Notes: generated from the letters alone by a model not told the origin. A DNA stretch of 6,967 nucleotides from an uncultured archaeon (GCA_964426185.1 CAYRPF010000033.1:26935-33901); one strand, 5' to 3'; shown: positions 2,656 through 4,341, counted from the first letter of the stretch. Numbers and translations: made by a program.

Positions 2656-2770
2656 CAAAAAGAAAACAAGAAGAAAATGGAGGAAGAGGGAAAATAGCAA
2701 ACCTCTCCCTCCTGGGGGGTTGGGGATTTATGTGATTGGTTATGAAGGATTGTTGGGATTATGAGATTTT
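2656..2770 (-). ncRNA. Candidate small non-coding RNA (about 110 nt): unstructured A/C-rich body, 3' hairpin, U tail
   Basis: Minus strand has ATATATAAAA (2798-2789) upstream, a G-free stretch (2787-2713), the 11-bp stem GGAGGGAGAGG/CCUCUUCCUCC (2712-2679), then AUUUUCUUCUUGUUUUCUUUUU. Ends are estimated. Confidence 0.45.
2657..2712 (-). terminator. GC-rich stem-loop followed by a U-rich tail on the minus strand
   Basis: Arms 2679-2689 and 2702-2712 with a 12-nt loop. The single A/C mismatch on + (2684/2707) is a G.U pair on -, and the U-tract follows the stem only on -. Confidence 0.6.
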
Positions 2771-3168
2771 TAAATTTTTATGTAATTCTTTTATATATTT
2801 TTAGGAGATCATTTCCATTTTGATGAACTACTTCAATATCTTGAATAAATTGGTGAACTTTCAGAATTTCAAAATATGAATAAAATGTTCCGAGAGAAGG
2901 CATAAATTTCGCAAAATCAATTTCGATGTTGGGCATGAGCGGACACCAATAATGTTTTAAATCTAAGTTACCTTACATGCGAACTGATTTATATCAATTA
3001 TATTGGAATCATTCTAAGAATTATTCTCTTTTTTTTGTAGTAGAAAAAATATTTTTGTAACTTCACCAGAAATACATCAAAATTGCTCCCCATAGCTTCA
3101 TAAAGTATGCTTTCTCAATGATAAACAATAGGCAGGTGAATTCCTCGACCTAATATTGGGGTAGAAAA

Positions 3169-4341
3169 ATGTCGGAAATAAAAAATGTTGTGGTGATCGG
3201 CGCGGGGCTCATGGGCTCTGGAATTGCCCAAGTCTCCATTCAAGCAGGATATCACGTCACATTAGTCGATATTAAGGAAGAATTTATCGAAAAAGGGCTT
3301 AAAGGTATTCTCAAAGGTCTTACCAGGTTAGAAGAAAAGGGAAAACTCAAAGAAGGAACTACAGCTCAAGTTTTGGTGAATTCCATTAAAAAAACCACAG
3401 ATATTGCTGAAGCCGTAAAAGATGCGAATATCGTTGTAGAAGCCGTGATAGAAAACTTAAAAATCAAGCAGGATGTCTTCCAAAAATGCGATGCCAACGC
3501 ACCTGCACATTGCCTACTAGCATCAAATACCTCATCAATGAGTATCACCAAAATCGCAGAAGCAACCAAACGACCGGAAAAATGTTTGGGGATTCATTTC
3601 TTTAATCCAGTGCCGTTGATGAAATTAGTTGAAGTCATCAAAGGTGAAAAAACCACAGATTCAACTTTGGAAGCGGCTAAAAAGTGGGCAGAAAGTTTAC
3701 CATGCAGAGGTTCCAGGTATGTGCCATATGTTTTGAAAGATCGACCAGGGTTTATTGCAAATAGAATGATCGCACCAGGTTTTATATTAATGAATTGGGC
3801 TTTCGAAGAAGCTGTCAAGAGAGGAATTTCTTGGGAAGCTTTAAATGCTGACACCTTAAAAGAAGGAATTCCAATGGGTTATTTAGAGTTAGGAGATTAT
3901 GTGGGCCACGATACCTATTTACACATCAATAATTACTATGCACAAACCCTTTCTGAAGATTTCAAACCTGGACCCTTTTATATGAAAATGGTAGAAGAGA
4001 AGAAGTTAGGTAGAAAAACTGGTATGGGATTCTTTGACTGGAGCCAAGGACGCCCAAAACTTTCCCTTGAACCAAAAGCAAATTTAGTTTCTGCAGAGTT
4101 ATTAGATGCAATTGAAGCGAATGAAGGATGTCGCTTATTGGAAGAAGGTGTGGTTAACCAATGGCATGTTATAGATGAGACTATGATGGCTGGCTTCAAT
4201 CGAGCAGGTGTAATGCATGAAGCTGTGGAAAAATACGAAAAATGGGCACAAATGTTGGAAGAAATTGCCGAAAAAATTAATAAACCCTATCTAAAACCTT
4301 GTGAAATGCTAAAAAGTGGAAAATTCGTTGATTTAAAATAA
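3169..4341 (+). CDS. 3-hydroxyacyl-CoA dehydrogenase (NAD-binding domain plus two C-terminal helical domains, archaeal type)
   Basis: VVVIGAGLMGSGIAQ, VVEAVIENLKIK, ASNTSS, GIHFFNPVPLMKLVEV (catalytic His/Glu), KDRPGFIANR and LGRKTGMGFFDW. SD-like GGGGT at 3158-3162. Confidence 0.96.
   Translation: MSEIKNVVVIGAGLMGSGIAQVSIQAGYHVTLVDIKEEFIEKGLKGILKGLTRLEEKGKLKEGTTAQVLVNSIKKTTDIAEAVKDANIVVEAVIENLKIKQDVFQKCDANAPAHCLLASNTSSMSITKIAEATKRPEKCLGIHFFNPVPLMKLVEVIKGEKTTDSTLEAAKKWAESLPCRGSRYVPYVLKDRPGFIANRMIAPGFILMNWAFEEAVKRGISWEALNADTLKEGIPMGYLELGDYVGHDTYLHINNYYAQTLSEDFKPGPFYMKMVEEKKLGRKTGMGFFDWSQGRPKLSLEPKANLVSAELLDAIEANEGCRLLEEGVVNQWHVIDETMMAGFNRAGVMHEAVEKYEKWAQMLEEIAEKINKPYLKPCEMLKSGKFVDLK

Follow-up and report, generated by a model that had tools for sequence, protein, structure and literature searches.

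A conserved 3′ module of motif, hairpin and U-rich tail is a probable transcript end of an overlooked small-protein gene in Lokiarchaeia

We have analysed a stretch of 6,967 nucleotides (nt) of contig C33 (26935-33901; hereafter the window) from the 155-contig genome assembly of an uncultured archaeon (3.26 Mb, 34% G+C, 92% complete). The host is a Loki-type Asgard archaeon of the Lokiarchaeia, in the family with Promethearchaeum, Lokiarchaeum and Harpocratesius; thus, the logic of archaeal promoters (TATA box) and archaeal termination (U runs) applies. The subject of this report is a minus-strand module at 2777-2657, consisting of a G-free tract with a conserved AAUCACA motif, a hairpin and a U-rich tail. 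We conclude that transcription of a conserved small gene (2936-2778, minus strand) probably ends in this module, which would be the 3′ untranslated region (3′ UTR) of that gene; the gene has its own palindrome/TATA promoter near 3017-2987. The first-pass annotation had described the hairpin as part of an independent small RNA (sRNA) gene, stating that no credible minus-strand open reading frame (ORF) precedes it. In fact, a conserved gene encoding 52 residues ends 65 nt before the stem, and the nature of the element was misjudged because this gene was missed.

The ORF 2936-2778 (MPNIEIDFAKFMPSLGTFYSYFEILK..., stop codon TAA at 2780-2778) is the best-conserved part of the intergenic region in a DNA search of 41 related genomes. 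Both protein conservation and codon-position bias identify it as coding. Summed over all pairs of 13 orthologues, the gap-free first 37 codons differ at 726, 381 and 1543 sites in codon positions 1, 2 and 3, respectively. Compared with the closest relative, the corresponding differences are 2, 1 and 13, with 10 synonymous and 3 non-synonymous codon changes. Judged by these substitutions, the ORF is a real gene under purifying selection. A protein search detected the product in 10 of 13 same-family genomes, compared to 0 of 135 sister-family genomes. Named carriers are Candidatus Harpocratesius repetitus FW102 (G001), which belongs to the same genus as the window, Lokiarchaeum ossiferum B35 (G010) and Promethearchaeum syntrophicum MK-D1 (G011); the genome of the window itself is G000. 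The orthologues in these relatives are annotated as “hypothetical protein”. Genome searches returned at most 7 family members per genome, all of 42–65 residues, and a search of 1.8 billion representative proteins yielded 46 clusters at 50% identity, nearly all of 44–93 residues. On the strength of these searches, the family (42–93 residues overall) is restricted to Lokiarchaeia.

The stop codon of the small gene is followed by a C/A-rich part of the 3′ UTR with 0 G in 65 nt (2777-2713). The G-free run itself begins inside the last codons of the gene and extends over 75 nt (2787-2713, 32% C), as had been noted at the outset; there are 28 runs of at least 75 nt without G or without C in the genome, so this property is less special than the hairpin. 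The conserved motif CAUAACCAAUCACAUAAAU (2744-2726), with the core AAUCACA at 2737-2731, is located towards the end of the tract. The hairpin (2712-2679) consists of a purine 5′ arm GGAGGGAGAGG (2712-2702), a 12-nt U-rich loop (2701-2690) and a pyrimidine 3′ arm CCUCUUCCUCC (2689-2679), which together form a stem of 11 base pairs (bp), seven of them G-C and one G.U. It is followed by the tail AUUUUCUUCUUGUUUUCUUUUU (2678-2657), which has 15 T within its first 20 nt, contains runs of U4, U4 and U5 and is the probable site of transcription stop. The hairpin, its G.U pair and its U tail are thus as first described.

A single hairpin accounts for 86% of the predicted ensemble of an 80-nt element (z = -3.6), and 0 of 200 shuffled sequences folded as well. 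In predicted folds of the whole mRNA, the hairpin persists, and the G-free tract and the motif are unpaired in both the minimum free energy (MFE) and centroid structures, in agreement with the earlier expectation that the tract would form little structure of its own. The plus-strand version of the stem contains an A.C mismatch and is followed by G-rich rather than T-rich sequence. A terminator scan detects the hairpin and tail. The stem is of the kind used to recognize bacterial intrinsic terminators (a GC-rich stem of 5–14 bp with an immediate U run), and the tail has the U runs soon after the stop codon on the sense strand that define archaeal U-tract terminators by sequence, termination itself being a prediction. 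The words AAUC and CAUAA are reiterated across 2782-2720 on the same strand; conservation outside the genus is limited to the copy nearest the hairpin (2744-2726), those further upstream having already diverged in H. repetitus.

Comparison of 16 orthologous loci (13 distinct, from at least three genera plus metagenomes) allowed the layout of motif, hairpin and tail, first proposed from a single sequence, to be recognized in relatives. Downstream of the stop codon, each of the 13 distinct orthologues has the module, with a G-poor unpaired tract containing the AAUCACA motif followed by a hairpin. The motif, (A/U)AUCAC(A), lies 20–63 nt after the stop codon, which is always TAA, and the hairpin starts 5–19 nt beyond it. 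The stems are 7–12 bp long with a purine-rich 5′ arm and a pyrimidine-rich 3′ arm, and the loops are mostly U-rich and measure 5–14 nt (9–14 nt in most). A U/C-rich tail follows the hairpin in all orthologues but one; with the same exception, 6–15 of the first 20 tail positions are T. The tract between stop and stem holds 0–7 G in 34–78 nt in every orthologue, compared to 17% G genome-wide. In all 13 predicted folds, MFE and centroid alike, the motif is unpaired and one shared hairpin is present. Fold z-scores range from -0.9 to -7.0, with nine of the 13 at or below -2.

Among 16 sequences, the UCAC of the motif never varies and the A's on either side of it hardly do. An 18-nt block, CAUAACCAAUCACAUAAA, is the same or nearly so in six Harpocratesius-like sequences, whose adjacent ORFs differ from that of the window at 35–59% of third codon positions; selection therefore acts on the motif itself. 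The hairpins of 8 of 14 sequences contain G.U pairs, and the sense-strand fold is stabler than its complement in 12 of 14, which identifies the RNA with the same orientation as the ORF as the functional form. The assignment of the hairpin to the minus strand on the basis of its G.U pair and tail thus holds in most orthologues. In one locus, L016 (1803-1875, G006:C67), a second, weaker hairpin copy with a 14-bp stem occurs ~100 nt after the first, and the first copy there is without a U-rich tail.

The module is tied to this one gene. A covariance model built from the orthologue alignment (R1) gave a single strong match per genome (E = 1e-8 to 1e-10) in G000, G001, G002, G010 and G011, in each case following the ORF. 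All weaker matches had E ≥ 0.003, and the paralogues of the small ORF do not match. A candidate second copy of the element at position 3,336,826 of L. ossiferum, the only other R1 match below 0.05, was rejected since it lies antisense inside a coding region. By this sequence model, the module is single-copy per genome and specific to one gene. An independent transcription unit, as envisaged earlier, is not supported by the distribution of the element: it is found once per genome, always downstream of one small gene and in the same orientation. The original failure to recognize a known family is borne out: at permissive thresholds, Rfam 15 gave four matches in the window, all with E > 7, of which the one touching the element is IMES-5 on the plus strand (17.8 bits against a threshold of 96), and no Rfam match overlaps the element in 12 orthologous loci.

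Such hairpins are rare at gene ends in this genome. A perfect stem of at least 8 bp occurs within 200 nt downstream of 36 of 2150 long ORFs, and only four of the 2150 (<0.2%) also have a T-rich tail. The whole genome, counted over its two strands, holds 81 stems of at least 9 bp with at least five G-C pairs; three of them, including that of the window, have a T-rich tail. A hairpin by one strict definition, applied throughout, is found at 13 of the 16 orthologous loci and at three of 17 paralogous ones, compared to 1.7% of ordinary genes; the three hairpin-bearing paralogues include a tandem pair in L. ossiferum. Runs of at least six T are found within 100 nt after the stop codon of 47% of long ORFs, compared to 28% for runs of at least six A. 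This enrichment agrees with archaeal termination, in which the polymerase stops at U runs without the help of a hairpin (PMC8716108). A generic terminator is ruled out as an explanation of the module by these genome-wide hairpin and T-run counts. The only other T-tailed hairpins of at least 9 bp in the genome are at G000:C51:3577-3606 and G000:C87:11968-11993, both on the minus strand; the C51 hairpin, which likewise has a purine 5′ and a pyrimidine 3′ arm, lies ~40 nt after an Hsp20-like small heat-shock gene.

The surroundings of the small gene change and the element stays with it. In the window, both large flanking genes are on the plus strand, as originally described: a GFO/IDH/MocA oxidoreductase (1086-2603) and a 3-hydroxyacyl-CoA dehydrogenase (3169-4341). 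In H. repetitus, the oxidoreductase is replaced by an unrelated convergent ORF of 409 residues; in L045, it lies upstream; and in L050-52, the neighbours are different again. The gene following the element is convergent in the window and most relatives, and co-directional, unrelated and equipped with its own TATA-like sequence in three. The changed neighbours therefore exclude an oxidoreductase 3′ UTR, a bidirectional terminator and a leader-peptide attenuator. The first of these had been named from the start as a finding that would undermine the sRNA proposal, and on this point the proposal stands.

A promoter can be assigned to the small gene on similar grounds. An imperfect 15-bp palindrome, TTAGAA-TGA-TTCCAA (3017-3003, minus strand), is a probable regulator site. 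It is followed by a conserved AT-rich block, AATATAATTGATATAAAT (3004-2987), which holds the likely TATA box ATATAAAT (2994-2987). The AT-rich promoter block shares 19 of 20 bases with H. repetitus, with the adjoining spacer divergent, and the minus strand of the window has only five matches to a TATA-like octamer (three sites), this one among them. The palindrome, with the family consensus TTGGAA-N3-TTCCAA, is directly upstream of the TATA box of the small gene in all orthologues; the TATA-like block follows within a few bases, ~50–80 nt 5′ of the ATG. As both elements are kept whether the upstream gene is a dehydrogenase, an oxidoreductase or a response regulator, the small gene has its own promoter. 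From the usual archaeal TATA-to-start distance, transcription is predicted to start near 2965. This promoter is probably regulated, with the palindrome a possible operator of some regulator. The palindrome has 464 matches genome-wide at up to two mismatches, which are too many to define a regulon. A perfect copy of the consensus is found at G000:C74:11646, ~100 nt upstream of an Lrp/AsnC-like regulator gene.

These features suggest how the module could work. The archaeal RNA polymerase would stop in the U runs after the hairpin, and the stable hairpin at or near the 3′ end would shield the short mRNA from 3′-to-5′ decay; it may also make termination efficient ahead of the next gene. The lack of G would keep the AAUCACA platform single-stranded, and this platform, the U-rich loop and the tail may be recognition sites for a putative factor that sets the fate of the mRNA.

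Several points weigh against assigning the module to the 3′ end of the small-gene transcript. Both ends of that transcript are predictions from DNA sequence, and the role of the hairpin is argued by analogy with bacterial and eukaryotic 3′ stem-loops, since archaeal termination needs no hairpin. The proposal to look for covariation in the stem met with a divided outcome: the hairpin is conserved, and formal covariation is weak, with 86.5% of cells paired in the model-fitted alignment compared to 83% in shuffles. Registers that are slid along the arms pair almost equally well in the alignment. We attribute the weak signal to the composition of the arms, since purines on one side can meet pyrimidines on the other in many registers. 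Nearly all of the pairs are G-C, G-U and A-U, as would result from descent through transitions, which would also explain the kept purine/pyrimidine polarity. Additionally, an unpaired conserved motif just before a terminator hairpin also marks trans-acting sRNAs derived from 3′ UTRs, to judge by comparison with such RNAs, and a TATA-like sequence, TTTAAAAA (2774-2767), is suitably spaced for a possible second, internal start near 2743. Literature searches turned up neither transcript-end maps nor small-RNA maps for Asgard archaea.

These last points bear on the strongest of the rival explanations, to which we give a minor though real share of credence. According to it, an sRNA of ~85–110 nt, sharing the same hairpin/U-tail end, is either cut from the mRNA or transcribed from an internal promoter in the final part of the ORF or just past it, and acts in trans through an AAUCACA or C-rich seed, possibly together with an Sm-like protein that binds the U-rich loop and tail. 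This is the sRNA of the first-pass annotation, amended to take account of the ORF. Bacterial sRNAs derived from 3′ UTRs share the terminator of the mRNA and arise either from an internal promoter (DapZ, MicL) or by processing (CpxQ, SroC). The layout of unpaired motif, terminator-type hairpin and U tail fits such RNAs, as exemplified by DapZ and CpxQ, which keeps this explanation alive. As in the bacterial cases, the module is placed in the 3′ UTR of a protein-coding gene, the short conserved motif is directly upstream of the hairpin, and the UTR is more conserved than neutral sites; the motif is also conserved beyond the needs of termination. In contrast to them, the module belongs to an archaeon, which has another type of polymerase and neither Hfq nor Rho, the loop is larger than in typical bacterial terminators (9–14 nt in most) and mostly U-rich, and the element is known here from its sequence.

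In 9 of the 13 orthologues, an octamer that matches TTTAWATA at six of eight positions or better begins 28–39 nt before the motif, as would suit an internal promoter; it is the TTTAAAAA already mentioned in the window and a perfect TTTAWATA in MK-D1. A conserved YCAU 3–6 nt before the motif could serve as initiator, which would place the window start near 2743. However, 36–42% of equivalent 12-nt windows after ordinary genes score as well, and four orthologues are without the octamer. Given the AT-rich background and the relatedness of the orthologues, the excess is suggestive and not significant.

Pairing of a UCAC or C-rich seed with ribosome-binding sites is chemically plausible on sequence grounds, since the genome uses GGAGG/GGUGA sites: these Shine-Dalgarno (SD)-like sequences are enriched before start codons, and the 16S rRNA of the same genome ends in GGAUCACCUCCU. 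Against a trans role, no conserved target was found among 12-nt complements of the unpaired tract; these occur at chance frequency in G000, and no complementary sites of at least 14 nt were found there. The only 12-nt complement at a start region in G000 is that of EF-1alpha (G000:C38, minus strand, start codon 1543), where AUUUAUGUGAUUUAAC-AUG is perfectly complementary to AAUCACAUAAAU of the element. In G001, G002, G010, G011 and G013, this match shrinks to a 5–8-nt SD-like core, GUGA(U/A), without compensatory change. As it is not kept in these five relatives, the complementarity is probably chance plus SD likeness. Comparison of the motif with the small gene's own 5′ UTR and start gave no consistent duplex (z -2.0 to +1.2). 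Moreover, a cis role would account at least equally well for the strict tie to a single ORF in a fixed orientation.

A second rival, which we consider unlikely, treats the module as an autoregulatory operator: the small protein would bind the motif or hairpin in the 3′ UTR of its own mRNA and control stability or translation. The element accompanies this orthologue group in 13 of 13 cases and is found nowhere else, which speaks for this reading. The idea is motivated, without being supported, by a likeness of the small protein to uS8, an RNA-binding ribosomal protein that represses its own operon in bacteria. The AlphaFold model of the small protein (39-sequence alignment, pLDDT 87.6) consists of a short helix, a 13-residue helix and a β-hairpin. 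uS8 is the top match by three routes. It leads a family-profile search of PDB sequences (E = 0.0046), accounting for 25 of the 29 matches listed, with the profile aligned to residues ~36–65 of its N-terminal domain; over all the comparisons, the likeness extends to residues ~27–65 of uS8. It is first in a Foldseek search with the model (E 0.1–1, TM 0.5–0.6). In a VIA-align search of 48,161 chains, the top hit (Z 3.6) is a chain of a Pyrobaculum calidifontis ribosome entry, followed by more uS8-sized chains of ribosomal small subunits.

All three similarities are weak, and we read them, on profile and model evidence, as resemblance rather than membership. The small protein has no Pfam family, and Pfam Ribosomal_S8 gave no match at E ≤ 1 among 16 family members. 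The window genome encodes its own full uS8, to which hhalign aligned the family over 17 columns only, with 2% probability. The main RNA contacts of uS8 are made by its C-terminal domain, which the small protein is without, and the internal-loop elements that mark the helix 21 site of uS8 are missing from the hairpin. Furthermore, the hairpin is missing after most paralogues.

Still less probable is the proposal from which the analysis started, an independent sRNA gene unrelated to any ORF, with a TATA box at 2798-2789 and a start near 2765-2770. The string ATATATAAAA is indeed present there on the minus strand; it is a good TATA match and fairly rare, with 59 copies in the genome, where TATA-like octamers occur at 0.62 per strand-kb. 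However, it falls in codons 47–50 of the small gene, which is under purifying selection, and it is not conserved there in the orthologues: the C-terminus and the string are altered in the same-genus relative and absent elsewhere, for example in L045. The region around the proposed start (2770-2750) is poorly conserved, with conservation beginning at ~2756.

Almost no credence remains for an ordinary or bidirectional terminator, a convergent oxidoreductase 3′ UTR without specific function, or a chance inverted repeat, which the position between convergent genes in the window and most relatives would allow, because the plus-strand stem has its A.C mismatch and is not followed by a T tail, the small ORF keeps the element in genomes in which the oxidoreductase is missing or lies upstream, the next gene is co-directional in three relatives, hairpins are rare at gene ends in this genome, and conservation across genera rules out chance.

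Other candidates were tried and rejected. A read-through extension of the small protein would use a frame that is open for ~120 codons past the TAA in the window only; in the orthologues, it closes after 4–50 codons, with indels shifting the frame. This open frame (2777-2418, minus strand) crosses the hairpin, runs antisense to the end of the oxidoreductase gene and is conserved in no orthologue. A selenocysteine insertion sequence (SECIS) does not fit, as the small ORF has no in-frame TGA, every orthologue ends at TAA, Rfam gives no SECIS match and the stem is without an internal loop. A transcription attenuator with a leader peptide is rejected because the next gene is mostly convergent, and unrelated in the three relatives where it is co-directional. 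The composition of the tract (0 G, 32% C) would suit a Rho utilization (rut) site, but a search of the 92%-complete genome found no Rho_RNA_bind domain. A pseudoknot between loop and motif would comprise 4–6 A-U pairs by eye and is not separable from chance in AT-rich sequence. A search for tRNA and tmRNA genes found none.

Returning to the 3′ end of the small gene, the module may be compared with known 3′ structures. Like bacterial intrinsic terminators and 3′ stabilizer stem-loops, it has a GC-containing stem and an immediate U-rich run after a stop codon. In contrast to intrinsic terminators, its loop is 12 nt long (the usual criterion is 3–8 nt), a hairpin with a T tail follows only 4 of 2150 long ORFs in the genome, and a conserved motif lies upstream.

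The hairpins of the tandem pair in L. ossiferum offer a closer comparison. They follow small acidic-protein genes that are paralogues of the same family (tblastn E ~3e-10), and they share the C-rich lead-in, a 9–11-bp hairpin and a pyrimidine-rich tail after the stop codon. Their hairpin (GGUGGGAU.../...AUCCCACC) is different, is not accompanied by AAUCACA and is not matched by R1. By sequence, these paralogue hairpins are a separate subfamily of elements.

The 3′ stem-loop of eukaryotic replication-dependent histone mRNAs is alike in logic only, being a gene-family-specific 3′ stem-loop with an A/C-rich unpaired lead. The module has no Rfam Histone3 match and differs in stem length, loop and flanks; we know of no partner of the SLBP (stem-loop-binding protein) type for the window element.

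Beyond marking a transcript end, the module may be a dedicated post-transcriptional device, either a 3′-UTR-born RNA that pairs with SD regions through its AAUCACA or C-rich seed, or an operator for the uS8-like protein encoded upstream of it. We put this forward only tentatively. If it is true, it would mean that the archaea most closely related to eukaryotes use eukaryote-style 3′ UTR control. Eukaryotic gene control is marked by 3′ UTR elements that are conserved and specific to one gene; to our knowledge, few archaeal examples have been described. As two cultured organisms, MK-D1 (~937,618-937,880 of NZ_CP042905.2) and L. ossiferum B35 (~4,437,584-4,437,860 of CP104013.1), carry the element, its transcript ends, partners and function are directly testable. 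The recovery of an overlooked small gene explains a seemingly “orphan” hairpin. At least three genera of the Lokiarchaeia have retained the element, together with a member of a lineage-specific family of very small proteins in which a faint likeness to an RNA-binding domain of the ribosome can be seen.

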